This document shows, piece by piece, positions 36,460 to 51,353 of a DNA stretch of 64,000 bases. The DNA comes from Nitrososphaeria archaeon (lineage in GTDB: Archaea > Thermoproteota > Nitrososphaeria > Nitrososphaerales > JAAOZN01). The position numbers were made by a program, and so were the translations under genes. The stretch lies in contig JARVJZ010000003.1 of assembly GCA_029775855.1 (NCBI GenBank), forward strand, positions 162,416 to 226,415. Reading direction: 5' to 3'. The first letter of the stretch is position 1. Each line of letters opens with the position of its first letter. The notes under the pieces are model-generated. The model saw nothing but the letters and a program-made list of their open reading frames with translations, ran no database searches and was not told the origin of the DNA.

Positions 36460-37902
36460 TTACTCTTCGGTGTTGTTGTTTCTTTGCCATATGTAGTAGC
36501 GTTTGTTCTGCGCTAAGATTGCCATCTTTTGTATTATTTTGGCTAATGTTTGTATGTTTTTTAGGGTCTGCTTTGTTTCTTCTAGGCTTAGCCTTCTTTT
36601 CTTTATCAGTATGTTTAGGGTGTAGCGTGTGGTATCTGAATTTAGTAGTGTTTCTATGAGGCTTTCTATCTGGTTTGGCTTGAGTTTCTCTAGTTTTTGT
36701 GTTATGTATTGCTTGGCTGCGGCTAGCCTCGGATCTATGTCGTATTTAGTTAGGTGCTGAAGGGTTTCTCTGGATTTTAACGATAGGGTTGAGGTGTATT
36801 CTACTTCTTGCATGCCAGCTTTTTTGAAGAAGGGGTTGTATTTCGCCATCACCGCTAAAGCTTCGACATATTTGTAGCCCACTTTCGGTAAAGTTTCTTT
36901 TACAAGTCTTACTGCTAACCCTACTCCCCTATACTTCGGATGGATCACCACTCTTGATATGGTTATGAAGTCTCGATTCAGATGCTCCACATCCACATGT
37001 CTCCCAAAGTATTTTGTTCTACCTGCGTTTGAATAGGTTGGTGTGCTGTAAACGATTACCCCAACGGTTTCGCCTCTAAGTTCAGCTTTAAAGACCTTTT
37101 TTATGTTGCAGAGCTTCCCATCTCTATAGTGGTAGCGCTTAAGGGTTTCAAGGTCTCTGATTGACCCCTCTTTGACTACAATCTCCTTTAATATGCTGCA
37201 CGGTCTACTTTTAACATCTTCAATATACTTGACTTCAACGGCTTCGCCGAACCCCTTAACTATGTAGATATTCGGCTGTAGATCTTCAAGCAGATCTCTA
37301 TGTGATGTGGCAACCAAAAGTGTTGCTCCTAGGTTTCGAGCCACCTTCTGCACACAGTAAGCAACTATCTTCGCGGTCTCTCGGTCTAAGAGTGAGCAAA
37401 ATTCGTCGAAGACGAGTGTGTTTGCGCCGATAGACATCATTTTCGCTATTTTGAAGCGGTATTTCTGCCCCTCGCTCAGATCTCGATATCTTCTGATGAA
37501 TAAGGTTGCTTCATTCAACCCGGCTAGGCTTAAGTATTTTATCGCCTGCTCCAAGTCTGAGCCTAGGGCTTCAACCAGCACACTATCTTGGTTAACTTCA
37601 ACCTCTTTATCTTGAATCACTTTACCGAAGGAGCCGCTTTCTTTTAAGGCTGACGTTATATCGCTTAGAAGCGTAGACTTCCCTGTGCCTGAGTCGCCGG
37701 TTATGTAGATTACATCCCCAGGCTTTATGTCAATTAAAAGGTCTTTGTATATTGTATTAGGGTTTTCAACCCCTACGCTCAGCCCAAATGCTTCGCTAAC
37801 ACCTATGGTTCTATCTGAGACTTCCGCTTTATCTAAGAATGTCTTTTCGAATCTAAAGATCTTCTTCGGCTTTTTGCAGCTGACTTTTACTTTGATTAGC
37901 AT
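36460..37902 (-). CDS. ABC ATPase-GNAT acetyltransferase fusion
   Basis: GDSGTGKST, LSEGQKYRF, VFDEF, ATSH; ISRVVIHPKYRGVGLA. Confidence 0.88.
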   Translation of the reverse strand: MLIKVKVSCKKPKKIFRFEKTFLDKAEVSDRTIGVSEAFGLSVGVENPNTIYKDLLIDIKPGDVIYITGDSGTGKSTLLSDITSALKESGSFGKVIQDKEVEVNQDSVLVEALGSDLEQAIKYLSLAGLNEATLFIRRYRDLSEGQKYRFKIAKMMSIGANTLVFDEFCSLLDRETAKIVAYCVQKVARNLGATLLVATSHRDLLEDLQPNIYIVKGFGEAVEVKYIEDVKSRPCSILKEIVVKEGSIRDLETLKRYHYRDGKLCNIKKVFKAELRGETVGVIVYSTPTYSNAGRTKYFGRHVDVEHLNRDFITISRVVIHPKYRGVGLAVRLVKETLPKVGYKYVEALAVMAKYNPFFKKAGMQEVEYTSTLSLKSRETLQHLTKYDIDPRLAAAKQYITQKLEKLKPNQIESLIETLLNSDTTRYTLNILIKKRRLSLEETKQTLKNIQTLAKIIQKMAILAQNKRYYIWQRNNNTEE

Positions 37903-37903
37903 C

Positions 37904-39355
37904 TTAGACCTTTATGATGATTCCTGATTGTTTGGCTCCCCAGCATGCTAGAGCGAGCGCGTATGCTAGGTCGTCTGTACAGCCACTTTTCTTGTCAAAG
38001 AGGTATCCACCAATTCTGCTTCGTGTGTATGTGATTGAGTTTAATGCGTTTATTAGAGCAGTGTCGTATGGTATTATGAGTCTGCGCTTCTCCATCTGCA
38101 GCCTTAATTCTGAGAGGATTTCCTGCTTCATCTTAGCTGTTAGAGTTACGCCTTCTACTGGAAGCCCGAGTTCTTTGCAGTGTTCTATAATCGGGTTGCC
38201 CAGTCCAGTCTGATCCATAGAAAGTTTGGTTAGATTGTTTGCTTTATGGTAGTCAGCTATCTCCGCTGTAAACTGTGTGTATGATATGTTGCGTTTGCTG
38301 ACGCTATGGACAACATAAAGGTATTTGTCAACGCATCTCACTACTACGAAGGCAGCTGCGCTGTCCTTCCCTCCTGGGTCATAGCCTCCGTATAGTTCTC
38401 CAATATTTAGTTGAGGTGCGTCGCCTAAGCAGCCTCTGAGTAGGTCGATTGGGAAGTAGGTGCTTTCATCATCTATGAACTGAGCCTCATACTCCTGCCT
38501 ATATCTCACTTCACCTATCAAAGATCTTTGCTCTTCGAGGAATTCTCTGCTGATTAACGGGTTAATCGACGATGGCAGGTGGTAGACCCATTCTCTAGGC
38601 CAGGTTGTGAAAGCCCGATAGGTTATATGGTCTTTGTCCCAAGGTGTTGTAAGGAGCCAAAGCGTGCCATTTGTTGCTGCGAGCATAGGTAGAATCACCC
38701 TCTCTATGACATCTGAAGGTATGAATGCGGCTTCGTCCACAACAGCTAAGTGCACCGTAAACCCTCTTAGTGTAGAACCATACCTACCAGAAGGTAAACA
38801 TAGTATCCTGCTTCGATTCTTAAATAGTATCTGCGTCTTAGTAGCCTTAAGCACAACCATCTTAACCACACTTGACTCAACGAATGACAAAACTTTGCTA
38901 AATGTCTCTAAGCTCTGCCTAAGAGTAGCGGATACGATGATAGATGTGCTTCTGGGATGCGTTAGTGCGTGATATAAAAGTTTGACAGCTGCTAAGGTAG
39001 ATTTCCCAGTCTGCCTACCACAGACCAAGATGAGCCTCTTCGACCTATTGCGTAGCACCTCAACTTGATAAGGGAAGAGGTCCATCCGCAGCACCTTCGC
39101 GGAAAATAAAGCTGGATCTTTTAAGAGTGGTTTGAGTTTCTCATCGAAACGCTCTTTGTAAATAAGCCGGTCAAGCTTGGTTTCGGCGAATTCAAGATAC
39201 CCTAGCTTAGCGAGATGCGGGAAGGTCTGTAGGCAGTTGAGGCATACTTTGCCAGTGTTTAATCTGCAGAAGACGACTTCATCTACAGTATGGTGGCAGC
39301 CTTCAACTAAGAGCTTCTCTAATTCATTCAGAAGACCTTCTCCTTCGGTCTGCAA
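37904..39355 (-). CDS. terL: Terminase large subunit
   Basis: L.PYQ, GRQTGKST, LRG, VVDEAAFI, YRQEYEAQF, GYDPG, DQTGLG, DDLAYALALA. Confidence 0.93.
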   Translation of the reverse strand: MQTEGEGLLNELEKLLVEGCHHTVDEVVFCRLNTGKVCLNCLQTFPHLAKLGYLEFAETKLDRLIYKERFDEKLKPLLKDPALFSAKVLRMDLFPYQVEVLRNRSKRLILVCGRQTGKSTLAAVKLLYHALTHPRSTSIIVSATLRQSLETFSKVLSFVESSVVKMVVLKATKTQILFKNRSRILCLPSGRYGSTLRGFTVHLAVVDEAAFIPSDVIERVILPMLAATNGTLWLLTTPWDKDHITYRAFTTWPREWVYHLPSSINPLISREFLEEQRSLIGEVRYRQEYEAQFIDDESTYFPIDLLRGCLGDAPQLNIGELYGGYDPGGKDSAAAFVVVRCVDKYLYVVHSVSKRNISYTQFTAEIADYHKANNLTKLSMDQTGLGNPIIEHCKELGLPVEGVTLTAKMKQEILSELRLQMEKRRLIIPYDTALINALNSITYTRSRIGGYLFDKKSGCTDDLAYALALACWGAKQSGIIIKV

Positions 39356-39530
39356 AATACCATCCTACAGCCGAGCCGGCTAGCGGTCCAAGGTTTAGAG
39401 CCGCTTCGTTTTTGTCGAGTAGTAGGGATATTATGAGTCCTAGTATGATGAGTATTGCGAGTACGCCTCTGTAGTCTGTGTTTCCTCTGAAGATGCTCTT
39501 TAAGACCTGCTTGGGTTGTTTTTCAGACAA
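39324..39530 (-). CDS. Small two-TM protein (holin-like)
   Basis: Two hydrophobic segments, VGWYF, basic C-terminus. Confidence 0.55.
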   Translation of the reverse strand: MSEKQPKQVLKSIFRGNTDYRGVLAILIILGLIISLLLDKNEAALNLGPLAGSAVGWYFADRRRRSSE

Positions 39531-39885
39531 GTTTTTTCACCCTCCTGTAGTGTTTATCTGGCTTTATTGACTTCATCATCTTCTTCACAACCTTCTCTGG
39601 GATGTGGAATTCAAAGGGTATCTTGCCGAATCTGTAGCCCTTTAAGACTAGGCTTTGAGGTATGCTGTCCCAGATTCTTGCTGCACCATCGGTTATCTCG
39701 TTTACCAAAATGATATGTGGCTTTGAGTAGGTTAGGTCTCGATATATTCCAGCGAAGACGCCTATTGTAAACTGTTCTGTCTTTATGGTGCTTTCCTTGA
39801 CAGATGTGTTAAATCTGATTCCACGGCATCTGCAGGCATCGAGCCAAAGCAACCCAACTATATCCCCAACCTCAAACTCCAACAC
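39523..39885 (-). CDS. Hypothetical virus-type protein (GD.V...WxDA)
   Basis: Coupled to neighbours; WLDA motif and IP...V tail. Confidence 0.65.
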   Translation of the reverse strand: MLEFEVGDIVGLLWLDACRCRGIRFNTSVKESTIKTEQFTIGVFAGIYRDLTYSKPHIILVNEITDGAARIWDSIPQSLVLKGYRFGKIPFEFHIPEKVVKKMMKSIKPDKHYRRVKKLV

Positions 39886-39889
39886 ATTT

Positions 39890-40138
39890 TCACCCTACCG
39901 CTTCTCTACTTTCTTCAACACTGCCGAGAACCTTATCCAACTCTTCCTCAGCATCTAAACCGCTCTTTTCGACTATTCTCAAGATATTTAGGGCTGTTTT
40001 ATTCATTATATCCACAAGCCTAATCTTATCCCGAGTATCTTTCTCCTTAGGTATCTGCTCATCAAGCCATATGAACCTTTGATAAAGTCTGCTAAGCATC
40101 TCCTTAAGATCTACTGGCGAAATCTGAGCTTCAGCCAA
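39890..40138 (-). CDS. Small helical protein, candidate terminase small subunit
   Basis: Charged helical 82 aa shortly upstream of terL (inference). Confidence 0.45.
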   Translation of the reverse strand: MAEAQISPVDLKEMLSRLYQRFIWLDEQIPKEKDTRDKIRLVDIMNKTALNILRIVEKSGLDAEEELDKVLGSVEESREAVG

Positions 40139-40149
40139 CTACTCACCAC

Positions 40150-40707
40150 TCAAGCGATATACTGCACCTCAACGCCTATTGTTGTGCTGCTGGGTAGGTT
40201 GTGGTGGACTCTGATTTTAATCGGCGTTGGAACCCCAGGCTCTATGACGCCTTGTATTAATGCAGCTGCGTGGTTCAGACCGTATGTGGTCATCTGAGAT
40301 AAACCGATGCTAACACCTCCATATGTTGTGGTCGAGTAGCGGATTGTGAACCCTGTGTTGACTGCGTTGTTGTCGGCATCGGTTACATCGTATCTAATGT
40401 ATCTTCCTTGATTCGCGTCGTACCATGAGTGTGGGCAAGCTACTGTAAGTAGGCATGGGAGCTTGGTTGGTGTGAATATGAGGAGGTCAACCCAAGTATT
40501 TGGTTCAACGCTTTGGCTAGCCACCTCTCTCTTAATATCTGGGATTTTAACCCAGCTTCCCCCTATACGCTGCTTTAAAGCGTCTTCAGATGTATCGTGC
40601 CATAGCTGCCCTTCTGATGGGTTGTCTGGTGGTGTGGAGCCTATATAGAGTGTCTTCAGATTCAGCTTATCCTTAGATATAATTTCAGCAGACTCCCAGA
40701 GGCTCAC
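40150..40707 (-). CDS. Tail fibre-like protein
   Basis: GSTPP.NP.EGQLW.DT....LK....G.W fibre shaft motif, beta-rich C-terminus. Confidence 0.7.
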   Translation of the reverse strand: MSLWESAEIISKDKLNLKTLYIGSTPPDNPSEGQLWHDTSEDALKQRIGGSWVKIPDIKREVASQSVEPNTWVDLLIFTPTKLPCLLTVACPHSWYDANQGRYIRYDVTDADNNAVNTGFTIRYSTTTYGGVSIGLSQMTTYGLNHAAALIQGVIEPGVPTPIKIRVHHNLPSSTTIGVEVQYIA

Positions 40708-40991
40708 TCCGTCTTCACCACCCTTAATGATCCTCTTGCAACTAGAGGCTTACCCGCTATAGACGCTCTAACCTCGTAGAGCCATACACCTATGCCCCAA
40801 GACTCGTCAAGCGTCAAGTCGAAGTGGTATGTGCCTGTCTGCTCTTTAACCGAGCTCTGCGAATCAACCCTCTTAGCCTTAGAAGCATCCCAAACAGAGA
40901 TCTTAGGGGGCTCATCTACATCTGTTAACTCGCCGCTGAAGTCTTTAGATACGATCTTCAGCCTAACGGTTGTTCCAAGCTCGAAGCTCAA
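40704..40991 (-). CDS. Ig-like virion accessory protein
   Basis: G.TV.L......G.L.D...P.I, TG.Y..D, G.W.Y. Confidence 0.6.
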   Translation of the reverse strand: MSFELGTTVRLKIVSKDFSGELTDVDEPPKISVWDASKAKRVDSQSSVKEQTGTYHFDLTLDESWGIGVWLYEVRASIAGKPLVARGSLRVVKTE

Positions 40992-41086
40992 ACCGTTAAC
41001 ACCTCAACTTTAAATATATGCACTTCGGCTGGGTCCGGCTCTGGATCTGAGGCTTGAGGATCTATATCCGCACCGCCCCCGCTCAT
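40988..41086 (-). CDS. 32-aa small ORF MSGGGADIDPQASDPEPDPAEVHIFKVEVLTV
   Basis: Fills the gap; stop overlaps next TTG start. Confidence 0.4.
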   Translation of the reverse strand: MSGGGADIDPQASDPEPDPAEVHIFKVEVLTV

Positions 41087-41103
41087 AAGATCAACCCTTA
41101 GGC

Positions 41104-43311
41104 TCAACCCCAGCCACCTTGATCTATGAACTCCTCAACCTCTTCGACCACATCGAGGATGCCGTCGTTGTCTTGATCTAGCGTCGGGTCTTTCATGCTC
41201 TGACCCCAATGCTTCTTAGATGAGTCAAGCAGATTAGGCAGTGTGAGTTTAACCTCGTGGATCTCTTGATTATGATCTGCTGTTACGGAGAGGTATGTTG
41301 GTAAACCGTCGCCGACAGTAGTGTTCTTCAGCTGAATGAAGTCCGCAGGCCCAGAGGAATCTTTTCTAAACAGCAGAAGATACTTTTTGTTAATATTCCT
41401 TAAGCCATAGTATTGGTTATTTGAGTCTTCGAATTCGTATGTTGCCTTCCCGTCATCTGAGTAGAAGCACTCTAATTTGAGCCTGCATTGACTTATGCCG
41501 TATGACGCTGAGTCTCTGAAGTCCTCTGGAGGCATCTTAACTATGAAGCCAACCCTATTCTTGCAACCATATGTTGATGAATATGTGAACTGATGCTGAT
41601 CTGTAGGCACAAGGAACTTAGCGCCATATATCGTGCCGTGATTGTTATAGCCGCTGTAGTCTTGAGCATCCCCGTCGAAAAGTAAGTCTAACACCAAGCC
41701 GCCTCTCACATCAGGTATAGTTTGGTCGAATCTACGGTTGTAGAGCTGCTGAGTCTCAGATGCAGATAAAGCTCGGTTGTAGATGCGCACCTCATCTGCT
41801 AACATTTTTGTATAACCGCTGAAGCCGTAGCCAATCCTTAGGTTTGATGTCGTCGTTCTCACGGTGGTTCCATTAGTATCCGTTTCCCCGACTAGTGTGC
41901 CGTCAACATACATCCTCAAATATCGTCCATCAAAGGTTCCAGCCCAGTGATGCCACAAACCATCCCTAACATCAACACTACCCGATGCGCTGAAGGAGTT
42001 TCCAGCTGGATTCTTAAAATACACGGAGGGGCGACCAAGAGCGGTGAGGTAAAGCATATAGTCATAGTCGCTAACTCCTTTTTGAACAAAGCCTCTACCA
42101 CCTGATACTCCTGGTTCAAACTTAAACCAACCCTCGAGGGTGAAGGCTGAGGAAAGTTCAAGAGAGCTCCCGCTTCCACAGTTAACATAATCATCCACGC
42201 CGTCGAAGCTTAAAGCGTTGTCAACAACCTTCGTTTCACCCCTTGACCCAGTGTATGCTTCACCTAACCCCGTTCGGTCTGGCAGAATGTCGCTCAGCTT
42301 CGTGCCGTCTAAGAAGAACAGTTTATCTGTTGACGCTAAGCCGCCTTCCAAACATTTCTGATACTGTGAGCCGTTCCAAGAATACAAATCAACTCTCTTA
42401 ACTGTATCCGGCAGCCTCGCTTCAACCTTAACCCATCTGCCAACATCAACAACTATCCTATCAATGTATTTCACATTTTGAGCCGTTGGATATTCGTAGA
42501 TGTTTATTGAGCCCACTGTGCTCCAATTCGGGTTACCCACTTTACCCGCCTTCCTAAGAGGTAGAATAAAGCGTCTCCAGCCTGTGAAGTTATCAACTAT
42601 AAGCCAGTAGAATTGGTCTGCTAAAGTAGGTGCTCCTATCACCACGTTTATGTTTGTGCCTGTGTTTGCGCCGTAGATGTATAGGCAGAGGAAGTCGTAT
42701 GTTGACCAGTCTTGAGTATTTGAAAACTCTCTTCTACAGCCTACTGAAGCGTATGAGCCGCTTCCAATAGCCATCTTCAAGCTGCTTGACCCCTTCGATA
42801 CAGTCGTTGTTTCTTCGGAAAGTACTACACCATAGCTCCCTGAGCCGGCTTGATAAGGGCTCCAAATCGTCTCATCGTCGTCATATACTACTATAGGACT
42901 GCACTCCTCTAAGTCGTTGTCCAAATAGAACTCATAGGAATACTTCATGTTTGCTTTATCGTGGCTCCAGTTGCAGAGTGAACCCTTCACATATGAATCT
43001 ACTAACGCATCCCCTTCTATATCGTAGTTGTTCAAAGGATGTAGTTTTAATTCACCTAAGGAAACAGATGGGAAACCCACTCCATATAGCAGGTAGTCTC
43101 CCTCTCCGAAGTCACTATTACCCCATGGGCTGCATCCGAATTGATTCGCTGATTGATCTTTGGCGTGCTTCTGACTCCAGCCGCATAGCTTCTTGTTCGC
43201 GTAGTCTGCTGGTAGAACTAGCCTACTCCACCTCCCCTTGCTTGGATCTGGGTTCCTGTAGACCCTTAGGTCTTGAACCTCCTTCCAGAAGCCGTATCTT
43301 CGAACAGCCAT
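41104..43311 (-). CDS. LamG/concanavalin-A-domain virion adhesin with a carbohydrate-binding-like domain
   Basis: ALSFDGVDDYV, FTLEGW, DGLWHH...TFDG...MYVDG, DEVRIYNRALS, D.SG.NNHGTIYGA. Confidence 0.85.
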   Translation of the reverse strand: MAVRRYGFWKEVQDLRVYRNPDPSKGRWSRLVLPADYANKKLCGWSQKHAKDQSANQFGCSPWGNSDFGEGDYLLYGVGFPSVSLGELKLHPLNNYDIEGDALVDSYVKGSLCNWSHDKANMKYSYEFYLDNDLEECSPIVVYDDDETIWSPYQAGSGSYGVVLSEETTTVSKGSSSLKMAIGSGSYASVGCRREFSNTQDWSTYDFLCLYIYGANTGTNINVVIGAPTLADQFYWLIVDNFTGWRRFILPLRKAGKVGNPNWSTVGSINIYEYPTAQNVKYIDRIVVDVGRWVKVEARLPDTVKRVDLYSWNGSQYQKCLEGGLASTDKLFFLDGTKLSDILPDRTGLGEAYTGSRGETKVVDNALSFDGVDDYVNCGSGSSLELSSAFTLEGWFKFEPGVSGGRGFVQKGVSDYDYMLYLTALGRPSVYFKNPAGNSFSASGSVDVRDGLWHHWAGTFDGRYLRMYVDGTLVGETDTNGTTVRTTTSNLRIGYGFSGYTKMLADEVRIYNRALSASETQQLYNRRFDQTIPDVRGGLVLDLLFDGDAQDYSGYNNHGTIYGAKFLVPTDQHQFTYSSTYGCKNRVGFIVKMPPEDFRDSASYGISQCRLKLECFYSDDGKATYEFEDSNNQYYGLRNINKKYLLLFRKDSSGPADFIQLKNTTVGDGLPTYLSVTADHNQEIHEVKLTLPNLLDSSKKHWGQSMKDPTLDQDNDGILDVVEEVEEFIDQGGWG

Positions 43312-43317
43312 CTTACA

Positions 43318-43572
43318 TCAGCCTCCTAGAGGATTCTTCAACGCTTCCTCCTTAGCCTTCAGATACTCTTCCTCACTCATCGCTGTGCATGAGCCTTGCG
43401 AGTCGTGGCTGCAGAAGTGAATCTGTATGATGTATTGCTTTGATGGGTTCAGTATGCTCTTTAAATCCTTTAACGCTTCATCTACACCCACTTCGGTAGC
43501 GTCTAGGCGTATGAAGTCCCCCTCTGAAGCTTCTTCGCCTATGATCTCATATGCTTCAACATAGATCTTCAT
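43318..43572 (-). CDS. Hypothetical protein (H.C.HD...C metal-site motif)
   Basis: Coupled ORF. Confidence 0.65.
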   Translation of the reverse strand: MKIYVEAYEIIGEEASEGDFIRLDATEVGVDEALKDLKSILNPSKQYIIQIHFCSHDSQGSCTAMSEEEYLKAKEEALKNPLGG

Positions 43573-43775
43573 TTAACCACCTCCTTCCTAACCACCTTAC
43601 CCCTTAGATCAGAGAGGTCACTAAGTTTCTCGCCGCCGCACTCAACCAAATGTTTACGCTTAACATATCTCCCAGCAACCTCTACGATCTTCTCAAGGCT
43701 CCAAGCCTCCATAGAGACCTCGCTACCCCAAACATCGTGTTTACCAGAGGCCTCCTCCTTCACCTTTAACCTCAA
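43569..43775 (-). CDS. Hypothetical protein
   Basis: Coupled ORF; GGAGGTGG SD for the next gene. Confidence 0.55.
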   Translation of the reverse strand: MRLKVKEEASGKHDVWGSEVSMEAWSLEKIVEVAGRYVKRKHLVECGGEKLSDLSDLRGKVVRKEVVK

Positions 43776-43776
43776 T

Positions 43777-44190: not shown

Positions 44191-44636
44191 TCCACAGTTA
44201 TATCCCAGTCTAATGTGATGGTCTTTGTCTCATCTTTCACTATAGGTGTTGGGAAGACCGCTCTTGAAAGCATTACACCTCCACTTTGTGATGTAAATAA
44301 GCCCGCTTCACGCCAAACACCATTATTATCTTGGCTGCTAAAGAAGGTTGAAAATGTCGCCGTGCACCCAGATCTGAACCTATCTGTAACCTGCTTTCTA
44401 GAACCTATCGGTTGAATTAGATCTGTGTCTGAAGGTGAAGGCGCTTGGTCGGATGAGCCTACACCACAATACGCAAAGCTCTCTGTTGAAGCTCCAATTA
44501 AGAGGTCGCAGATATGGCTCTTCCCCCTAGAAACTACTAGGTTGGTTATGGTATACTCTTCTATTGGCTTGCTTCCACCAAGGCTCTTATGCACTCGAAT
44601 TCTAACTCTACCTTCTAAGATTATATTCCAGTTCAA
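44187..44636 (-). CDS. Tail collar/fibre-anchor protein
   Basis: NLVV..G, GVG.....P...DT.L, EAGLF, G.ML.R, I.K. Confidence 0.75.
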   Translation of the reverse strand: MNWNIILEGRVRIRVHKSLGGSKPIEEYTITNLVVSRGKSHICDLLIGASTESFAYCGVGSSDQAPSPSDTDLIQPIGSRKQVTDRFRSGCTATFSTFFSSQDNNGVWREAGLFTSQSGGVMLSRAVFPTPIVKDETKTITLDWDITVD

Positions 44637-44650
44637 AACTGTTTACCACC

Positions 44651-44920
44651 TTAACCGCAGCTTGAAAAATCCACTCTAGCACATCCAACTGTGAAGACGC
44701 CCTTTAGATGAGTAAAAGCGCTGCAAGCAGCATTTAGCCCAGTAGCATCGCTAAGTTGCCTTCTGTATCGATTGATTATAAGATTCTCTTCTAAAGGTGT
44801 TTTTTCGCTGAATGTTGTAATGAAGGTAACCACACCTACGCGTGTAGCACCATCTTTAAGCTGCTGGTCTCTAAGGCTACGCTTAATGGAGTCAATAATC
44901 TCCCATAAGTTCTCAGGCAA
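44651..44920 (-). CDS. Hypothetical tail-tip-associated protein
   Basis: Coupled after hub gene. Confidence 0.6.
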   Translation of the reverse strand: MPENLWEIIDSIKRSLRDQQLKDGATRVGVVTFITTFSEKTPLEENLIINRYRRQLSDATGLNAACSAFTHLKGVFTVGCARVDFSSCG

Positions 44921-44921
44921 T

Positions 44922-46355
44922 CTACCCCAACTCCATCTTCATATAATCTATAGCAGATGCGCCTGCATTGTACTCTATGACTACACTTTTGACCGTAAGT
45001 TCACAGTCTATGTGAAGTTCTGGAATTACAACCCTAGCGGCATCTCCTACTTGAGGTATCTTAGATAACCCCTTTACCATTAGGTTTTCGAGGATAAACC
45101 TTCTACTCACCTTTTCAGTAAGGAGGTTTAGAGCTAACGTTTTAACGGTAGCCTTGTCGATTATGTTGGTGTTTACGTATATGAACTCCCTTCGCCCATA
45201 CTTCTTTACGCTGTTTTCGTCAACGGCTTGTGCAAGCACCGGTACACCGTAGAACTGCTTATAGGCTGGTGTCCAACTTCCGTCAACTACTATCCACTCC
45301 TCACCGTCAGAAGAGTATGCGTGTATGTCTTCGTTTGAGTTGTTGTGATACCACCTATATGTAGAAGTTTCTGTGCCACATTTAGCCAAGGTTATCCAAT
45401 ACTGCTTCCCAGCCTCAACATCTGACTGCAAAGGGATAGCAACCCAACTAGGATAGCCTTCCTCACCAACATCTGAGGGTGTAATCGTGAAGTAGTCTAT
45501 CTTTTGACCTCTCGGCTTTCCATCAAGGTCTTGTACAATCTGCCCAGATATAGGCTCGGTTGGTACTCCTTGCTTTTCTAAAAATAGAGCTATCATTCTA
45601 AGTTTATCTCCTGTTGGTGTGAATTTCGCTGCGTAGTGCCCGCTTTCTAATGTGGTGTAGCCTTCTGTGATGGTCTGGCTCTGGTCTACTTTAAGCTCAT
45701 ATCCGCCTATGGCATGCACTATATTGCGCATTTCACGTATACTTTCCAGAACCTCTATCGGCTGGATGATGTTGCTTGATGTCAGCGTCAAATCAGACCT
45801 TCTTGAACCTTTTGGGTAGAAGTGTAGTTTGAGGTTGGGGGTAAAGACATATTGGTAGTGCGCTAGTTCAGCAAGCTGGTCTAGGCACTCCTTTAACGAT
45901 ACGTAATTGAATACTAAGCTGCCTACTTTCTTATCTGTTTCTTGCACACCACTAGTATCAACTTCAGGAGCATACTTAGAGAAAAGGTCTCTCACGATAA
46001 AGTCGATTGTTTTATCGTGGTAAGATTCAACTACATATCTGTTTAACATCAGTATGTATGCATATTCTGCAGCATCTATTACGAGAAGCCTTCTCCCTCC
46101 ACTATAGTTTACAGCTACCTCCTCAACTTGCCCTTGGTAGATGTGTTGTAAAGGAGGGTTTACAGAATCGCAGTAGACGTTTACAATAGAGCCTACGCCG
46201 TATGCTTCTCTGTAGAAGCCGTTTGAGTCGTTGACTATTAGTCTGAATGTGCTTGCGCCTCCTTGGTGTAGCCTTAGTTCAAAGCTGCAGCCTTCGCTTC
46301 CAACAACTCTTGTCTTATTATTTAAGTCGGTTATTTTAACTCTTGCGTAAAGCAT
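44922..46355 (-). CDS. Tail tip/hub protein
   Basis: Follows tape measure; S.KECLDQLAEL, D.NS.KKYG.RE, GD.A.V. Confidence 0.75.
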   Translation of the reverse strand: MLYARVKITDLNNKTRVVGSEGCSFELRLHQGGASTFRLIVNDSNGFYREAYGVGSIVNVYCDSVNPPLQHIYQGQVEEVAVNYSGGRRLLVIDAAEYAYILMLNRYVVESYHDKTIDFIVRDLFSKYAPEVDTSGVQETDKKVGSLVFNYVSLKECLDQLAELAHYQYVFTPNLKLHFYPKGSRRSDLTLTSSNIIQPIEVLESIREMRNIVHAIGGYELKVDQSQTITEGYTTLESGHYAAKFTPTGDKLRMIALFLEKQGVPTEPISGQIVQDLDGKPRGQKIDYFTITPSDVGEEGYPSWVAIPLQSDVEAGKQYWITLAKCGTETSTYRWYHNNSNEDIHAYSSDGEEWIVVDGSWTPAYKQFYGVPVLAQAVDENSVKKYGRREFIYVNTNIIDKATVKTLALNLLTEKVSRRFILENLMVKGLSKIPQVGDAARVVIPELHIDCELTVKSVVIEYNAGASAIDYMKMELG

Positions 46356-46370: not shown

Positions 46371-48191
46371 TCAAATCCTATTTCTGAGCCTCAGCTGCTT
46401 GGCTATTTCAAAGCCTACTTGCTCGGAAAGCTTCTTTACATCTATGTTTGATGAGATCTTCTGTGTTGTGATGTTGATTGAGCCTATGCTGATAGCGCTG
46501 AATGCTGAGAATGTTCTTGCAAGGTCTGTTAGGGTTGGTTCAACAGCGCCTTGGATTTCGGCTAGACCCTTCTTTGTTTGGTTCAGCATGTCGCTCCACA
46601 TATCTGGCCATATGCTTCGCTTTGCTAATATGTCCCAGAGCCAGTTGAATGCAGAGGCTATTGAGTTAACGAAGTTCCAGACCGCGGTTTGGATGGGTGT
46701 TATTGCATTTCTATAGAATCTCCATATAGCTTCTGAGATCGATTCCCAGACTTCAACGGATATATTTTGGAGTGTGGTGAATTGTGTCTGTAGGCTGTTG
46801 ATTAGGCTCAGCAAGCTCAGAGTCTTCTCTGAGATGGTGTTTGAGGCTTTTGCCCAGATGGTTGATATCGAGTTTATGCTTTCCGCTGCTGCTTTAAGAG
46901 CTTCACCTACACTTTCTTTAAAGCGTATGAAAGTTTGTGTGATACCTTCTGCCGTCTGCTTTATTCGATTTGATAAGGTTTCGGCGAATGTATGCAGTGT
47001 CTGTATAAGGTTATCTTGTATCCATTTAACTAATGCTGTAGTTGCTAAAGAGATGCTGCTGAAGAAAGCTTCATAGCCTTCGAGCAGCCAGCTCCTCAAT
47101 CTATCATTCAAGATCTGGATCTGAGATGCGCCTTCACTCACTTTGGCTACAAGAGCGGTAAAACCTCTTTCTAACACGCTGAAGATCTTCTCTCTACCCT
47201 CAGGCTTAGCCCAAGTCACTAGCGTGTTCCCTAGGGCTTCAAGTATAGGTATGAGACCACTGCCAACTACCTCCTTGACCTCCTCCATTAAGTTAGCGAA
47301 CCTAGCGTAAGCTCCTTCTGCTTCGTAGGCTGCTTGAGCGCTTCCTCTAAACTTTAACTCTAGATTTGTGAGAATTTCAGAGAAGCCTATAGTGGTCTTC
47401 TGTGCTTTTGTGCTTGCAGCACCGTATCTATCAAGGAACTCTTCTACCGCTTTAGCGTCGAGTTCACAGAGCTTCTTCTTCATCCGCTCTACTACTTCGC
47501 TCCAAGTCAAAGTCTGTTTTGACGCCTCATCGACCGATACACCTATATTTTTTAGAGATTCTACAACGCTCTCCTCCACCAAAGCTAATCTCCCATACTT
47601 CGATGCTAGGCTTTCGACTCTCTCATTTAACTCAAGAATCTTATAAGATGCCAGCTCAACCTCTACACCATACTTACTCTTCAGATCTGATGCTTGACCT
47701 CTGAATGCTTGACCAAGGTCTTCAACGACTTGCTTTAATGTTCTACCCGAGCCTGCTGCTGTGTCTATCGCAACACTTAGGGTTTTTAGTGCTTCTTCCG
47801 GTTCAATCCCATATCTTATAAGCGTAGTTAACGCTTCAAGGAGTTCCTGTTTTGTATAAAGCGTTGATGCTCTTATCTGATCTATCTGGCTGCTTATCTT
47901 TGGGCCCCATTCGCTCCAGCTCAGACCAAGGTTTTCAATCATCTTTCTTAAAACACCGCTTGCACTTTTCATTTCCACAACCATACCTATGGCTTCTCCA
48001 AGAAAATTTCTGATGGATGAAGCTGCGTTCAATCCTATCGATGCAACTATGAACCCGCCTGCTATGTTCGCTACCTGCCCAAGCTGGCTGAAGCCGCGTG
48101 AAAGCCTACTTGTATTCTCAGCAACGGTTTTGAAGACGCTACTCGCTTGATCTATAGCCCTAATCCTAGCTACAAGGTCGAATGTAGGCAG
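46371..48191 (-). CDS. Tape measure protein, 606 aa from a probable CTG start
   Basis: Open upstream of the tracked start: LPTFDLVARIRAIDQASSVFKTV; long helical; SIWPDMW; AGGTGA SD before CTG. Confidence 0.8.
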   Translation of the reverse strand: MPTFDLVARIRAIDQASSVFKTVAENTSRLSRGFSQLGQVANIAGGFIVASIGLNAASSIRNFLGEAIGMVVEMKSASGVLRKMIENLGLSWSEWGPKISSQIDQIRASTLYTKQELLEALTTLIRYGIEPEEALKTLSVAIDTAAGSGRTLKQVVEDLGQAFRGQASDLKSKYGVEVELASYKILELNERVESLASKYGRLALVEESVVESLKNIGVSVDEASKQTLTWSEVVERMKKKLCELDAKAVEEFLDRYGAASTKAQKTTIGFSEILTNLELKFRGSAQAAYEAEGAYARFANLMEEVKEVVGSGLIPILEALGNTLVTWAKPEGREKIFSVLERGFTALVAKVSEGASQIQILNDRLRSWLLEGYEAFFSSISLATTALVKWIQDNLIQTLHTFAETLSNRIKQTAEGITQTFIRFKESVGEALKAAAESINSISTIWAKASNTISEKTLSLLSLINSLQTQFTTLQNISVEVWESISEAIWRFYRNAITPIQTAVWNFVNSIASAFNWLWDILAKRSIWPDMWSDMLNQTKKGLAEIQGAVEPTLTDLARTFSAFSAISIGSINITTQKISSNIDVKKLSEQVGFEIAKQLRLRNRI

Positions 48192-48197
48192 CCTCTC

Positions 48198-48656
48198 TCA
48201 CCTAAACTTGAACTTGAGCTTAAAGAGGTCTTCAGCCTTCGAAGCCATCTCAGCCATCAACTTAGGTTCAACCTCGCTTATAGCTGGTCTGAGGAAGGGT
48301 CTCTCCCTAAAGCCTGGGTGCTTAGCAGACTTTGCGAAGTATGTGCTTGAACCCGCTCTGAAAAGCAGCGCTTTAGCTGCTCTAGGCCTTATTATATGTG
48401 GTTTGGTGCCAAATTCTATGTATGGTGCGTAATTGAGTTGTGAGCCTATTAGGTAGTTTAATTCCCCTTCTCTAACCCATTTTATGCTTGAAGATAATCT
48501 TCCTGTGCGTTTCGGTGCTAATCTGCTCGCTATTGAAGATGCTGCTTCAACATATTTTCTGAGTATTGCGTCACATACCTTCTTTAGCTCGTTGGCGCCG
48601 CTCAACATCGCATATCTGAAGTCCCAAAGGTTATCTACAGAGACTCTGAGCTCCAA
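48198..48656 (-). CDS. HK97 gp10-like neck/tail completion protein
   Basis: AP.RTG.L..SI, YAPYIEFGT, RPFLRPA. Confidence 0.88.
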   Translation of the reverse strand: MELRVSVDNLWDFRYAMLSGANELKKVCDAILRKYVEAASSIASRLAPKRTGRLSSSIKWVREGELNYLIGSQLNYAPYIEFGTKPHIIRPRAAKALLFRAGSSTYFAKSAKHPGFRERPFLRPAISEVEPKLMAEMASKAEDLFKLKFKFR

Positions 48657-48883
48657 AGACGCCTTCGCCTCTCTATTCTACGCCTTGACTCTTCTATGGC
48701 TGTATGCCGCTTCGGTTCAAGAGCGAAGAGAGACGAGCTTGATGCAAGGCATAACTCATCCACAAGGATGCTAAGTAGACTACCAGAATCAAGGCCAAGT
48801 ATGGCGCTTGGTGCTCGATGTGTAAGTAGCCCAAGGGCACCAGCCCTAACGCCCAAGTTAGTTGCTGCGAAATTTCTCAGCAT
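48635..48883 (-). CDS. Tail assembly chaperone extension (T-like; probably reached by frameshift)
   Basis: Overlaps the chaperone end in the +1 frame; PS.ILG...D motif. Confidence 0.6.
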   Translation of the reverse strand: MLRNFAATNLGVRAGALGLLTHRAPSAILGLDSGSLLSILVDELCLASSSSLFALEPKRHTAIEESRRRIERRRRLWSSESL

Positions 48884-49157
48884 ACCATTCAGCCTCCCCG
48901 TAGAGCTCTATACAGTATCTTAGAAGCTCGTTGAATAGTGTTGTAGTGTCTTCTGCATTTGGTTTAGGTTCTATAAGGCTTTCGCAGAGTAGGCTAACGG
49001 CTTTCTCTATCTCGCTTGAAACTTTAACCGCTTCTTCAACACACTCCACTGACTGAATCTTCTTAAATAAGTTGGCGTAAACTTGTATGAGTGCGTAGTG
49101 CCAAGCTTGCGGTGTCTTCAACCTGTAGATTGAATCGTTAACTTTAATCTCTTTCAA
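48858..49157 (-). CDS. Tail assembly chaperone (G-like)
   Basis: Between tube and tape measure genes; ends AAA TTT CGC AGC AAC TAA. Confidence 0.7.
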   Translation of the reverse strand: MKEIKVNDSIYRLKTPQAWHYALIQVYANLFKKIQSVECVEEAVKVSSEIEKAVSLLCESLIEPKPNAEDTTTLFNELLRYCIELYGEAEWYAEKFRSN

Positions 49158-49305
49158 GTCTCCTCAGTCTGCCGAACCATCTTGAGAAGTGCTCCCATGA
49201 GCAGAAGACCGTGGTTTGCGAAGTGTTTTCATTTACCTTCACCTTTAAGGTTATGGTGAAGTCCTCTGAGGTCAGATGTGCTCCGCAAAGCGAGCAGCTC
49301 GGCAT
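49144..49305 (-). CDS. 53-aa TRASH-like Zn finger (not in ORF track)
   Basis: MPSCSLCG...VFCSWEHF; fills tube-chaperone gap. Confidence 0.65.
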   Translation of the reverse strand: MPSCSLCGAHLTSEDFTITLKVKVNENTSQTTVFCSWEHFSRWFGRLRRLERD

Positions 49306-49308
49306 ACT

Positions 49309-50262
49309 CTAGTATCCGCTCTGGTCGTTTTGAAGTGTGATCTTAACCACACCATTAACGCTGTGTTTGAGCGCCGTGAATGTCAGGATTTGAGTGAGCC
49401 TATCCTGCCCCTTTAGGTTTACATCTCCTTCTTCGTAGATTAGTCTAGGTAGCGTAATCTCTAACTCATACCTATAGTTTCCAGATATCACGCTACCTTG
49501 AAACTTTAGGCTTATGGAGTTCTCTTCTGAAGCTAGAAATCTGTCTAAGTGCGTGCTGCTGTCAAACTTTATGGTCGCGGAGCCCTTAACATCTAATGGC
49601 GCTTCTTCAACTTCCTGTGGAAACCGTGAGCCGAATCTGTAGCCTTCTGGGAAGTTGTTGTTTAGCTCGAGGCTAAAGTGTTCAAATTTTACTGGGATGC
49701 CATTTATCTCTTGATGCACGACTTGAGAGGTATGTATGTAACCTTGCTGAGAGAAGTTAAAGGGGCCTGTGTATAAGTTTACTCTGCTCTCCTCGCCGCC
49801 TAAGATGTCTGCTGTTATGCCTAGGTGGTCCCCTGCTTCACCCTCTATTATGAGCCTATTTACGACGCATCCTGTGATGCGCTTTGCTGCTACGCTCCCT
49901 AAACCTACCTCTATCGTATAGCTCGGCCAAGGAGATGAAGACCCACTTCTAGGTGTAAAGGTGTGTCTGTAAACTGTGGGGTTGCCATTCGGGTCAGGTT
50001 GAGTGGTAGAGACTTCACCTAGGGCAGAATAGAGAAACTCACCTAAACCTTTGTCGTATACTGGGTAAATCTCTATGCTACCCGTTGTTTTGGCTTTTGT
50101 TAAGTCTACTTGTGTGATGAATCTCCCTCCTTCTACCGTCCTCAGATATTCAACACCAGGTTGGAACTTGAGGCTCTCAGAAAGTATTCTTATGTGCGTG
50201 TTGAGGCTCGGCGCGGGCACACCGTAGCTCGACTCCTTACCCATCCTCAAATAGTTTGCCAT
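49309..50262 (-). CDS. Major tail tube protein
   Basis: G.ESSYG, Y.HTFTP, PSYTIEVG, G..VN.L, L.ITLP, I.L.N....Y. Confidence 0.85.
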   Translation of the reverse strand: MANYLRMGKESSYGVPAPSLNTHIRILSESLKFQPGVEYLRTVEGGRFITQVDLTKAKTTGSIEIYPVYDKGLGEFLYSALGEVSTTQPDPNGNPTVYRHTFTPRSGSSSPWPSYTIEVGLGSVAAKRITGCVVNRLIIEGEAGDHLGITADILGGEESRVNLYTGPFNFSQQGYIHTSQVVHQEINGIPVKFEHFSLELNNNFPEGYRFGSRFPQEVEEAPLDVKGSATIKFDSSTHLDRFLASEENSISLKFQGSVISGNYRYELEITLPRLIYEEGDVNLKGQDRLTQILTFTALKHSVNGVVKITLQNDQSGY

Positions 50263-50273
50263 CTTACTATCCC

Positions 50274-50347
50274 CTCAATTCTGTCTAGACACCCTGATTC
50301 CCCAGGGTGTTTCGCCGGAGTTTCACCGGCTCGTCAGTAGACTTAAG
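50274..50347 (-). ncRNA. Type I hammerhead ribozyme; cleavage predicted between 50288 and 50287
   Basis: GUCUA-CUGACGA-GCCGG(UGAAACU)CCGGC-GAAA-CACCCUG(GGGAAU)CAGGGUG-UC/UAGAC. Confidence 0.93.
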
Positions 50348-50786
50348 CATAAGGGGTCCAAACCTTCTTCAGATCTATTATGCGAGCCCAAGCTAGGGCG
50401 TAGTCTTGCTCAGACCCTCTTGCAACCTCTATAACTCTGGGCTCAGGTTCGTTTTCGACTAGACCATCTAATGTTGGGTTGGAGTTCAGCGCTTCTTCAA
50501 CGCCTTCAATCAGCCTATATATGGTCTTTTCAGCTTCATCTTCAGATGCGTGGCGTTCAATTACCCCTATCTCAAACCTTAAGATGTATTGGAATCTGTG
50601 TAAATCAGAGCGTCCACTATATTCTTTACCTAGCCATTGAACATAGATTAAGGGGTATCGGTATGCTGTAAATGGGATGCCAAAATGGTATGCCGCGACA
50701 TCTTTGAGAGTTGGATTTGAGCGCATAACCTCAATATACTTATGCACGAGCTCAGCGTAGACCAAACATTCTCTAACCCTTAACAA
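50343..50786 (-). CDS. Tail terminator-like protein
   Basis: YP.IYV, VE.AL..NPTL.GLV; precedes tube gene. Confidence 0.7.
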   Translation of the reverse strand: MLRVRECLVYAELVHKYIEVMRSNPTLKDVAAYHFGIPFTAYRYPLIYVQWLGKEYSGRSDLHRFQYILRFEIGVIERHASEDEAEKTIYRLIEGVEEALNSNPTLDGLVENEPEPRVIEVARGSEQDYALAWARIIDLKKVWTPYA

Positions 50787-51111
50787 CCCCTGTGGATGCT
50801 GCTTTGCCGGATAGGTAGTTTGAGCGGATGAAATCTTTAAGCCTCTCTTTCGCCTCAGATACTAAGGGTTGGGATTTAGATTCGTCAAGGTTCGCTCTTT
50901 TTAATCTGAAGACTCCGGCAGCCCACTCTGCTGCTATCCATCTTATCTCATCTGGCACCTTTTGCAGAGGCGTCGTTGTGTATGCTCTTAGCTGCTCATC
51001 CATCTGGCTCTCGACATTTAGAATAATCTGCTGTATCTCTGTATCATATTGGATTTCTGTGGGCGTCATGTTCAGCCAACCCTTAACATCGCTTACCGAG
51101 CAATACCTCAT
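50773..51111 (-). CDS. Head-tail adaptor (gp6/gp36-like)
   Basis: YCSVSDVK..L, D..L..Y...PL..VP..I..IA. Confidence 0.78.
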   Translation of the reverse strand: MRYCSVSDVKGWLNMTPTEIQYDTEIQQIILNVESQMDEQLRAYTTTPLQKVPDEIRWIAAEWAAGVFRLKRANLDESKSQPLVSEAKERLKDFIRSNYLSGKAASTGVVKG

Positions 51112-51325
51112 ATTCCCTCAACTCTTTGACCGATGATGGTGCAAATTCTGAAAGCCTTCCGTCTCTGTGAATGAGCCTCCTATTCTCTAGTATAGTTGAA
51201 TTCGTCAATCCATGCTTTGCAAGCCATAGTAGCTGCACTCTGATGTCCCATGAGCCTTCTTTTGAACCTAATTCTTTTAAACCACTCTTTAGAAGACTTT
51301 TAGGAGTTTCTTTTTTAGTCATCAA
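51083..51325 (-). CDS. Hypothetical first gene of the cluster
   Basis: Overlaps adaptor start; TATA upstream. Confidence 0.55.
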   Translation of the reverse strand: MMTKKETPKSLLKSGLKELGSKEGSWDIRVQLLWLAKHGLTNSTILENRRLIHRDGRLSEFAPSSVKELREYEVLLGKRC

Positions 51326-51345
51326 ACTTTGACCACATCTGATAA

Positions 51346-51353
51346 TATTTAAA
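51346..51353 (-). promoter_or_regulatory. TATA box heading the tail/terminase cluster
   Basis: TTTAAATA about 24 nt upstream of ATG 51322 (leaderless spacing). Confidence 0.5.

Follow-up and report, generated by a model that had tools for sequence, protein, structure and literature searches.

Introduction

In the text of Krupovic et al. (2019; PMC6563490), Nvie-Pro1, NCAV2-Pro1 and CalSub-Pro are described as head-tail elements without att sites or replication genes, and a domestication akin to that of gene transfer agents (GTAs) is called 'a distinct possibility'. The same GTA-like suggestion is made in the text of Abby et al. (2018; PMC5797428), where killer particles are named in addition. 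Here, an operon of tail and packaging genes is described in a stretch of 64,000 nt from a Nitrososphaeria archaeon (assembly GCA_029775855.1, contig JARVJZ010000003.1). Together with a module of head genes on another contig of the same genome it probably forms an immobilised, split and host-maintained two-locus head-tail particle system that derives from a tailed virus and is most likely GTA-like. The whole stretch, called the window in the following, comprises C3:162416-226415 of the genome G000 (1.507 Mb, six contigs, 98.4% complete, 2.08% estimated contamination), and all plain coordinates count from the window start. G-numbers denote genomes, C-numbers contigs and L-numbers (e.g., L029, L170) individual loci.

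With the immobilised thaumarchaeal 'proviruses' (Nvie-Pro1, NCAV2-Pro1/NitIsl-Pro1, CalSub-Pro), the system shares the host class and the features by which these are characterized in the texts of both papers (PMC6563490, PMC5797428), namely TerL, portal, HK97-type capsid, prohead protease and siphovirus-type tail genes. According to these texts, the proviruses have no integrase, att sites or replication genes; here no integrase or replication family was matched, and att repeats were not searched for. Their protease-capsid fusion is also found in two close relatives of the system (G008, G021), and a gene with a TackOD1 domain lies in the window. The published proviruses are described there as single loci, whereas here the head genes and the tail and packaging genes lie at least 146 kb apart, a split common to three species. 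Purifying selection was measured here, which goes beyond those descriptions. TerL relatives in records titled Candidatus Nitrosocaldus (L075, L087; among the best 80 of 149 named relatives) reach 34-36% identity, a remote relation. No partner protein of ABC-ATPase and GNAT type is mentioned in the texts of the two papers (the term 'ABC' has zero occurrences in that of PMC6563490), and their supplementary tables may list an ABC-like gene. In the literature on GTAs in Thaumarchaeota and on archaeal terminases with acetyltransferase or ABC proteins, supplementary tables aside, no description of a split system or of an ABC-GNAT partner was found. What is new is thus a split two-locus variant of a system that has been suspected in Nitrososphaeria as GTA-like domestication.

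In RcGTA of Rhodobacter capsulatus, the main cluster holds the terminase, portal, capsid and tail genes together, only accessory genes are located elsewhere, and the packaging of random host DNA has been demonstrated. Like RcGTA and the alphaproteobacterial GTAs, the system described here would consist of host-encoded head-tail genes at more than one locus, without matched replication or integration functions, vertically inherited under purifying selection and without self-transmission. Unlike RcGTA, it belongs to an unrelated lineage, is cut between head and tail, carries TerL at the tail end together with an ABC-GNAT gene, and is known from its genes alone. An archaeal phage-like particle tied to gene transfer is the VTA of Methanococcus voltae, reportedly the subject of work by Eiserling and colleagues in 1999. 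The likeness to VTA, which is one by description only, lies in the archaeal host and in particle-type gene transfer, and the host of VTA is euryarchaeal. Tailocins are made without capsid, portal and terminase. A chromosomal tail cluster with fast-evolving fibres is shared with them, but TerL is intact here, a full head module is present elsewhere and there is no sheath gene; the system is not a tailocin.

Organization of the tail and terminase operon

A single run of 23 co-oriented open reading frames (ORFs; g01-g23) is located at 36460-51325, all on the minus strand and read from 51325 down to 36460. A co-oriented run had been described in the original prediction, which was made from the sequence of the stretch without database searches. 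The genes abut or overlap as described there, except for gaps of about 80-170 nt after g03, gp10 (g08) and g17. Together with five genes of the head module this amounts to 28 genes with 18.3 kb of coding sequence, all of which are open in G000. Families were searched for in Pfam, PHROG and NCBIfam/TIGR, and firm family names could be given to six operon genes (tube, gp10/Neck1, tape measure, LamG/CBM protein, TerL and ABC-GNAT).

51346..51353, minus strand: TATA-like box TTTAAATA; g01 starts with TTG about 25 nt further on; conserved in G003
51083..51325, minus strand: g01, 80 aa, first gene; no family match; 77-80% identical in G003/G002
50773..51111, minus strand: g02, 112 aa, head-tail adaptor-like (weak); Phage_Mu_Gp36 at an E-value of 0.0057, below the cut-off
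50343..50786, minus strand: g03, 147 aa, connector- or tail-terminator-like (weak); phrog_4204 (tail terminator), 4.3e-4
49309..50262, minus strand: g04, 317 aa, tail tube; Phage_tube_2, 3.5e-25; phrog_290, 1.7e-35; 85% identical in G002/G003
48635..49305, minus strand: g05-g07 (53, 99 and 82 aa), small overlapping ORFs at the tail-chaperone position; assigned by position only, no significant family match
48198..48656, minus strand: g08, 152 aa, HK97 gp10/Neck1 tail-completion family; HK97-gp10_like, 1.5e-6; phrog_5, 1.2e-18; TIGR01725, 9.5e-7
46371..48032, minus strand: g09, tape measure, 553 aa from the first canonical start; 10 of 12 PHROG matches are tape-measure families, the best at 3.8e-10
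44922..46355, minus strand: g10, 477 aa, distal tail or baseplate hub-like (weak), following the tape measure; phrog_196 (baseplate hub), 7.1e-6
40150..44920, minus strand: g11-g18, fibre and receptor-binding region, with family matches for g12, g13 and g16 and including g17 and g18
41104..43311, minus strand: g16, 735 aa, LamG and CBM domains; Laminin_G_3, 2.3e-26
39523..40138, minus strand: g19 (82 aa) and g20 (120 aa), small genes ahead of TerL, conserved in relatives
39324..39530, minus strand: g21, 68 aa, small hydrophobic protein overlapping the TerL start; holin-like by position only, no family match
37904..39355, minus strand: g22, 483 aa, TerL; Terminase_6N, 2.3e-18; Terminase_6C, 1.3e-4; phrog_2, 1.3e-42
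36460..37902, minus strand: g23, 480 aa, last gene, ABC-type ATPase with GNAT acyltransferase and helical C-terminal domain; ABC_tran, 8.6e-12; three GNAT families at about 1e-3

By these family matches, structural and packaging genes of tailed-virus ancestry are present in the host chromosome. Among the 23 operon proteins no capsid, sheath, integrase, repressor or replication family was matched in any of the three databases, in agreement with the original prediction. Its statement that a portal is lacking holds for the operon as well, apart from a weak secondary match of g03 to phrog_490 at 0.006, the sole portal match there. The labels adaptor, terminator and hub, which had been assigned by eye to g02, g03 and g10, are carried by the weak matches listed above and by gene position; no strong family match was obtained for them. 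The protease that had been listed beside the fibres could not be verified, the sole lead being a match of g13 to Agglutinin_C (2e-6). In the fibre region, g12 matches phrog_5417 (2.9e-22) and the tail fibre family phrog_4176 (4.8e-7).

For the tape measure, a length of 606 aa had been given. The ORF of the G003 orthologue has 606 aa and the frame of g09 is open 55 codons further upstream, to 48197 and thus up to the gp10 stop, whereas the protein has 553 aa when counted from the first canonical start. Matches to Phage_tube_2 and to tape-measure PHROGs are present and no sheath family was found among the 23 proteins, from which a non-contractile (siphovirus-type) tail is predicted. Tail length follows the tape measure at about 0.15 nm per residue, which would correspond to a tail of roughly 85-90 nm here. 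All three ORFs at the tail-chaperone position have conserved counterparts in both G002 and G003. The idea of a -1 frameshift from g06 into g07 was dropped, as g07 lies in the +1 frame relative to g06.

The TATA-like box in front of the first gene, already noticed in the original prediction, forms a conserved island (TTTAAATA) inside an otherwise diverged spacer in G003. At the head locus, a similar box is found ahead of the portal gene in all three species (G000, G002 and G003), again as an island of conservation between diverged spacer sequence; besides the TATA box, no shared regulatory motif was seen in a comparison of both promoters.

The surroundings in the window are core host genes, comprising complex I subunits, two thermosome subunits, CDC48, FEN1, EF-2, an ECF transporter and a DHH phosphoesterase, and GC and GC3 of the element lie inside the host range. 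The tRNA that had been postulated at one boundary does not exist: ARAGORN and Rfam detect no tRNA anywhere in the window, nor was any other Rfam family matched in it.

The head module at a second locus

In the relative G021, which belongs to another family, a portal gene and a protease-capsid fusion gene are located directly upstream of the adaptor gene. A tblastn search with the G021 portal against G000 identified the portal gene at C2:199258-200433 (33% identity, E-value 1.2e-53), and with it a module of five genes (L029).

G000:C2:196595-200433, minus strand: head module of portal, H2, H3, H4 (capsid) and H5
C2:199258-200433, minus strand: portal, 397 aa; phrog_9232, 1.8e-15
within the module, minus strand: H2, 333 aa, prohead protease- or scaffold-like; fold match to T4 gp21
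within the module, minus strand: H3, 147 aa, cement/decoration protein; Phage_cement_2, 1.2e-10
within the module, minus strand: H4, 318 aa, HK97-type major capsid protein; Phage_capsid_4, 7e-13; TIGR01554, 39.2 bits at a cut-off of 27.5
L029:10595-10792, minus strand: H5, 65 aa, small ribbon-helix-helix (RHH)-like protein, by eye and as a lead from the Atlas

Searches of H2 against solved structures by sequence, single or profile, gave no match, and the fold search alone pointed to a capsid protease: the three best solved-structure matches of the H2 model (mean pLDDT 60.3, better over residues 1-210) are the T4 capsid assembly protease gp21, with E-values from 6e-4 to 1e-3. Furthermore, H2 has a conserved motif pattern N...Y..EEL...H and H.S, which recurs N-terminally in the fused protease-capsid proteins. 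Among named Atlas clusters, those closest to H5 are RHH families at 0.90-0.92, which serves as a lead only, and a divergently transcribed ORF of 71 aa beside the portal gene is RHH-like by eye. H5 is 91-94% identical within the genus and has homologues in L042, L016 and L038; its location shifts: it follows the capsid gene in G000 and G028, g12 in G008 and the LamG gene in G021.

Host genes flank the module: its neighbours are an amidohydrolase, a thiolase and a 3-hydroxyacyl-CoA dehydrogenase at one end, and a GalT-like gene and an EamA transporter at the opposite end. From the contig-internal distances, the shortest possible path between the head locus and the tail locus amounts to 133,165 + 12,675 = 145,840 bases. 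Hence the expectation that the head genes lie at a separate locus was borne out, with portal, protease-like, cement, HK97 capsid and RHH-like genes found at least 146 kb away. By gene content and by the gene order of relatives described below, the operon is evidently the tail-and-packaging half and the C2 module the head half of the same virus-derived system.

No second head module was found in G000 by tblastn with the portal and the protease-capsid fusion of the relative, which returned the C2 module only, and TerL is a single-copy gene in this genome. The alternative raised in the original prediction, a helper virus, therefore gains no support. A Pfam capsid scan of G000 returned nothing, missing even the genome's own capsid gene. 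For this reason, genome-wide family negatives are treated as weak, including the tyrosine integrase PF00589, for which no match was obtained in G000. Among the 28 proteins, no replication, integration or lysogeny family was matched, about half of the ORFs being without assignment.

Conservation and selection within the genus

Three genomes of the same genus (G002, G003 and G001) were available for comparison. In G003, the entire tail and TerL cluster lies between the same neighbours, a CdvB-like gene and the DHH/ECF genes, and the head module is found on another contig beside the same thiolase gene. G002 has the same head site and the same 5' junction of the tail cluster, with the TerL end on a third contig. 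In total, the same two host sites hold both loci in G000, G002 and G003, and the host genes beside them share 72-92% identity with their counterparts in the species of the genus.

In G003, 23 of the 28 genes are full-length; g21 is covered to 88%, g14 and g18 are partial (the match of g18 covers 28% of its length), g13 has no match and TerL is present in three pieces. For G002, 17 of the 28 genes are full-length on the three contigs compared, which do not include the middle of the tail cluster. The fibre region (g11, g13-g18) diverges fastest, with 33-57% identity to G003. The hub g10 is 68% identical in G003 and 38% in G008. The small gene g20 is 82-85% identical within the genus (pN 0.08-0.09) and g21 85-88% over all 68 aa.

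Nonsynonymous and synonymous differences were calculated as Nei-Gojobori (NG86) proportions (pN, pS) for G000 vs G003. With pS between 0.53 and 0.89, synonymous sites are saturated, and pN ranges from 0.06 to 0.25 for capsid, tube, portal, adaptor, hub, tape measure, TerL and ABC-GNAT. The individual pN values are 0.065 for the capsid, which is as low as that of the host thiolase (0.063), 0.087 for the tube, 0.116 for the portal, 0.163 for TerL, 0.197 for ABC-GNAT and 0.244 for the tape measure; flanking host genes reach 0.063-0.16. When unconstrained substitution was simulated at 10% per site, a mean of 5.3 of the 28 genes stayed free of stops (maximum 11 in 200 trials), and at 30% the mean was 1.0. 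Since 23 of the 28 genes are full-length in G003 despite saturated synonymous sites, selection must have kept them, and the data indicate purifying selection and vertical inheritance within the genus.

Absence from close relatives with an empty tRNA site, relaxed selection, a mis-assembly near 51.4 kb and a complete provirus in sister strains had been named beforehand as findings that would speak against a domesticated element. Instead, two of the three same-genus species carry the cluster at the same site (the third, G001, is 72% complete, with contigs ending at both sites, and there is no tRNA site), the genes are under purifying selection, and the sister species show the same split; the junction is treated in the next section.

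Verification of the assembly

The stretch is present in hot-spring metagenomes of three studies, and one metagenome holds several strains at differing depth. Contigs of independent runs confirm the sequence, one of them spanning 51074-51759 without a difference, and the junction at 51.3-51.6 kb is shared by G002 and G003. This junction is not mis-assembled. At the other end, metagenome contigs of three runs break at 36338-36423, beside the last gene, where G003 carries a 2.4 kb insertion; the 36.4 kb junction is a strain-variable spot rather than an excision joint. None of the contigs of the four runs compared joins across the cluster. Contig joints at 37416/46355 and 46649/50963 were disregarded, since their sides comprise just 21-22 letters.

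The insertion in G003 (L015:2195-4560), located between the ABC-GNAT and the DHH gene, contains, as judged by eye, a 322-aa ORF with DNA methyltransferase motifs and a small RHH-like ORF. In the DHH gene itself (35272-36369), the first 25 or so codons lie in a different frame from the rest in G001 and G003, but not in G000.

Gene order in relatives and the wider family

The relative G008, from another Nitrososphaeria family, carries a single minus-strand block of about 17.5 kb from portal to ABC-GNAT, in the order portal, protease-capsid fusion, adaptor, g03, tube, gp10, tape measure, hub, g12, H5, g20, g21, TerL, ABC-GNAT. If the head part is removed from this order, exactly the operon of the window remains. 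The protease is fused to the capsid protein in G008 and G021, and g02 directly follows the capsid gene in these two contiguous relatives. Furthermore, g03 is conserved in G008, G021, G047, G023 and G020, g20 precedes TerL in G008, G023 and G018 and at the loci L048, L073 and L095, and homologues of g21 do so in G008, G021 and G038. The nearest Atlas clusters of g20 are viral hypothetical proteins.

The position of TerL behind the tail genes instead of before a portal had been singled out in the original prediction. The order itself was confirmed, but it is no local rearrangement: judged by G008 and by 66 of the 80 best loci from IMG/VR, it is the normal order of this virus family and ancestral.

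Among named TerL relatives, 149 of 187 candidate stretches were confirmed and the best 80 kept. The closest of these 80 come from Nitrososphaeria or Thaumarchaeota metagenome-assembled genomes (MAGs), with the titles Nitrososphaeria, Thaumarchaeota or Nitrosopumilales archaeon, and the more distant ones from Bathyarchaeia, Caldarchaeales, Archaeoglobaceae and some bacteria. An ABC-GNAT gene is found within 3 kb of TerL at 25 of the 80 loci, and adjacent to TerL at seven of 11 TerL loci from relatives of the order. In IMG/VR, at least 574 stretches encode ABC-GNAT relatives by an alignment-based scan (574 of 600 among the matches listed), while a scan with the single TerL protein found nothing. 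At the 80 best of these loci, TerL lies alongside in 66, and the ABC-GNAT match ends within 150 nt of a contig end in 21.

Three IMG/VR contigs were annotated. One of them (L170) carries a tyrosine integrase and another (L199) an IrrE/M78-like peptidase and a HerA-like ATPase. Since some IMG/VR relatives thus have an integrase and other non-structural genes, the family includes ordinary temperate viruses, and the window copy is a stripped, split derivative. With the free and integrated tailed viruses of Thermoproteota (IMG/VR loci L133-L212, genome loci L046-L081) the operon shares the order tail genes, small genes, TerL, ABC-GNAT; the integrase, the IrrE/M78-like peptidase or the HerA-like ATPase that some of them carry were not matched in the window element, which in addition is split.

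A comparable separation may exist further afield. Three distant TerL/ABC-GNAT loci on long contigs were scanned, two from Bathyarchaeia and one from Calditenuaceae. The 67 ORFs that lie within 10 kb of these cassettes gave no match to a capsid, portal or tail PHROG, and the same genomes have strong portal-profile matches on other contigs (E-values from 3e-76 to 1e-96). In G061 and G062, the portal adjoins protease, cement and capsid genes (318-320 aa) like those of G000. Altogether, three of five distant genomes (G061, G062, G063) have the cassette on one contig and the portal or head module that matches best on another, and in the other two portal and TerL share one contig, about 24 and 14 kb apart. 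If the parts in these MAGs do belong together, the system may have been scattered over host chromosomes recurrently. A Bathyarchaeia TerL gene (G064:C2:92542-93801) contains an in-frame TAA, with portal and tube-like genes 24 and 13 kb upstream on the same contig.

TerL and its ABC-ATPase/GNAT partner

In TerL, the residues G117 K118, D207 E208, D326 and D461 D462 are invariant across 10 relatives. The protein has an N-terminal extension (residues 1-70) with four Cys, arranged C-x9-C-x7-C-x2-C in G000, which is conserved in G000, G002 and G003 and may be a zinc ribbon; the TerLs of other families begin after its position.

The ABC-GNAT protein matches phrog_293 (5.9e-34), phrog_886 and phrog_11143. 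Across 23 relatives, the residues of its P-loop, signature and GNAT motif do not vary. Its structure model is confident (pLDDT 87.9); compared by fold with the PDB, it matched nothing more specific than ABC nucleotide-binding domains of a generic kind. The comparison with viral models was led by a GNAT protein of a Leptospira phage (2.1e-20). Further matches of the GNAT part there are small phage NAT proteins and, at rank 34, Mom of a Salmonella phage (8.8e-5, rmsd 2.7 over 145 columns). The protein may act in packaging or modify the packaged DNA.

A relic of a second ABC-GNAT gene is located on contig C5 (G000:C5:32317-33130, i.e., L030:8317-9130, minus strand). It consists of the GNAT half only, split over two frames, is 35-45% identical to the window copy and is adjoined by an ORF with a SIR2_2 domain.

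Neighbouring genes in the window

Divergently from the tail operon, at 51581-52108 on the plus strand, a 175-aa CdvB/ESCRT-III-like protein is encoded (NCBIfam CdvB 6.5e-7, far below the cut-off). The gene keeps its position in G002 and G003, but with only 51-54% identity, much below the other host neighbours. At 57194-58800 (plus strand), a gene for a Ras-family small GTPase runs into the start of the next gene, whose product has a TackOD1 (thaumarchaeal output) domain, and the two are likely to form a signalling pair. At 61963-63471, an acylphosphatase-domain protein with a long tandem-repeat coiled coil adjoins a repeat-rich DUF3782-like protein. The related elements of G008 and G023 likewise have genes with acylphosphatase, DUF3782/PD-(D/E)XK and HTH_28 domains beside them (L043:10503-14477; L044:132-3367). 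A deeper synteny via the acylphosphatase and DUF3782 genes was rejected, these genes being multi-copy and weakly similar.

Discussion

The proposed course of events is as follows. The head genes would build a procapsid, which TerL would fill with DNA, perhaps with the always-linked ABC-ATPase/GNAT protein, whose GNAT part resembles Mom-type DNA-modifying enzymes. Adaptor, gp10 and terminator-like proteins would join the non-contractile tail, and the small membrane protein g21 might aid release. No single capsid-full would carry both loci, and the genes would not be transmissible as a unit by the particle. With the loci this far apart and no replication or integration module matched, such particles could not propagate the element. 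By analogy with gene transfer agents, the most likely payload would be host DNA. Features that relate to regulation are the conserved TATA boxes at both loci and the small RHH-like genes.

Several observations weigh against a maintained GTA-like system. In G003, TerL is a pseudogene with out-of-frame deletions of 11 and 5 bases, the other genes there remaining intact, so that packaging would be dispensable in at least one lineage. In G001, the closest relative by FEN1 (90% vs 85-86%), no orthologue of TerL, capsid, portal or tube was detected. At each of the two expected junctions a contig of G001 breaks off within about 650 bases, and these contig ends match nothing; at a completeness of 72%, either loss or non-assembly may account for this. 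Across the order, the distribution in a survey of 61 genomes (G000 included) is patchy: TerL relatives occur in 23 of them, the portal in 14, the tube in 11 and the capsid in seven. TerL identity does not track host FEN1 (69% for FEN1 and 34% for TerL in G008, 63% and 56% in G021), and the elements of other families sit at different chromosomal sites. On account of the uncoupling from FEN1, the evidence for domestication applies at the genus level and not to the order. Many small ORFs without assignable function could hide regulatory or replication roles, and the absence of an integrase rests on the insensitive scan that missed the genome's own capsid. Finally, one RNA-library run (X7) yielded short contigs that match the g03, gp10, hub and LamG genes as well as neighbouring host genes at 95-100% identity, which may reflect carry-over of DNA. 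They cover 12 of 30 bins, none between 36202 and 41009, and cannot show expression; particle and payload are predicted from genes alone.

The broken TerL in G003 is also an argument for a particle of protein only or a killer particle, i.e., a PBSX-like or tail-mediated antagonism device with packaging as an accessory, as two deletions hit TerL while 23 of 28 genes stayed full-length. The fibre and receptor-binding genes, which evolve fastest and are swapped between species as for a targeting device, point the same way, and Abby et al. (PMC5797428) name this alternative in their text. We regard it as unlikely: in G000 and G002 neither TerL nor ABC-GNAT is broken, their pN being 0.15-0.20 vs saturated pS and their catalytic residues invariant, the breaks in G003 look recent, the surviving TerL codons still having a pN of 0.16, and portal, protease and capsid genes are among the best conserved.

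Quite improbable is a single old provirus in decay, defective through the loss of integrase and replication genes and divided by a chromosomal rearrangement, whose genes have no present function. Full-length ORFs (28 of 28 open in G000, 23 of 28 full-length in G003) over saturated synonymous sites are excluded by the simulation without selection, and the TATA boxes of the promoters are conserved at both loci. These findings have to be set against the missing integrase match (with att repeats not searched for), the TerL pseudogene in G003, the element not being found in G001 and the patchiness of related elements across the order, which speak for decay. That such elements do decay in this genome is seen from the frameshifted ABC-GNAT relic on C5.

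Very improbable is that the element is still a virus, either active, helper-dependent or a satellite that is excised or mobilised by another element. Family contigs with integrase and other non-structural genes (L170, L199), the 574 or more ABC-GNAT stretches in IMG/VR and the contig breaks beside the last gene could be read in this way. However, the loci are each enclosed by host genes at least 146 kb apart and, at saturated dS, occupy the same positions in three species; the break at 36.4 kb falls on the site of the insertion in G003, and no contig across the cluster appeared in four runs. No second TerL was found and by tblastn no second head module, although an unrelated second capsid or portal is conceivable given the insensitive capsid scan. 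With two distant loci, no integrase match and no tRNA (att repeats not being searched for), the element does not qualify as a functional integrated provirus of Caudoviricetes.

An artefact of binning or assembly that joined head and tail contigs of different organisms or strains, for which the six contigs, the estimated contamination and the strain mixture in one metagenome might be cited, is hardly credible, as both loci lie inside long contigs (333.6 kb and 226.4 kb) with host flanks 72-92% identical within the genus, and G002 and G003 independently show the same two-site arrangement.

The GTA-like two-locus system therefore remains the probable reading, and it bears on a poorly covered field. 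GTAs are well studied in a few bacterial groups, and the archaeal case rests mainly on one methanogen with poorly defined genetics. Nitrososphaeria (Thaumarchaeota) are globally important and have few known viruses, and the domestication of their immobilised 'proviruses' has so far been speculation. To this, the locus pair adds a comparative argument, in that the split blocks self-carriage, the position is conserved across species and selection is clear, and a defined set of 28 genes is now available for testing. TerL behind the tail, together with an ABC-ATPase/GNAT gene, is a hallmark of a large undescribed lineage of archaeal tailed viruses. More tentatively, and with considerable doubt on our part, the TerL and ABC-GNAT cassette might mark a large head-tail family of Thermoproteota (Nitrososphaeria, Bathyarchaeia, Caldarchaeales) that was repeatedly immobilised and scattered, with a GNAT partner that modifies the packaged DNA in a Mom-like manner so that it survives restriction in the recipient. 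If this were true, the cassette family would be a widespread archaeal counterpart of the bacterial GTAs.

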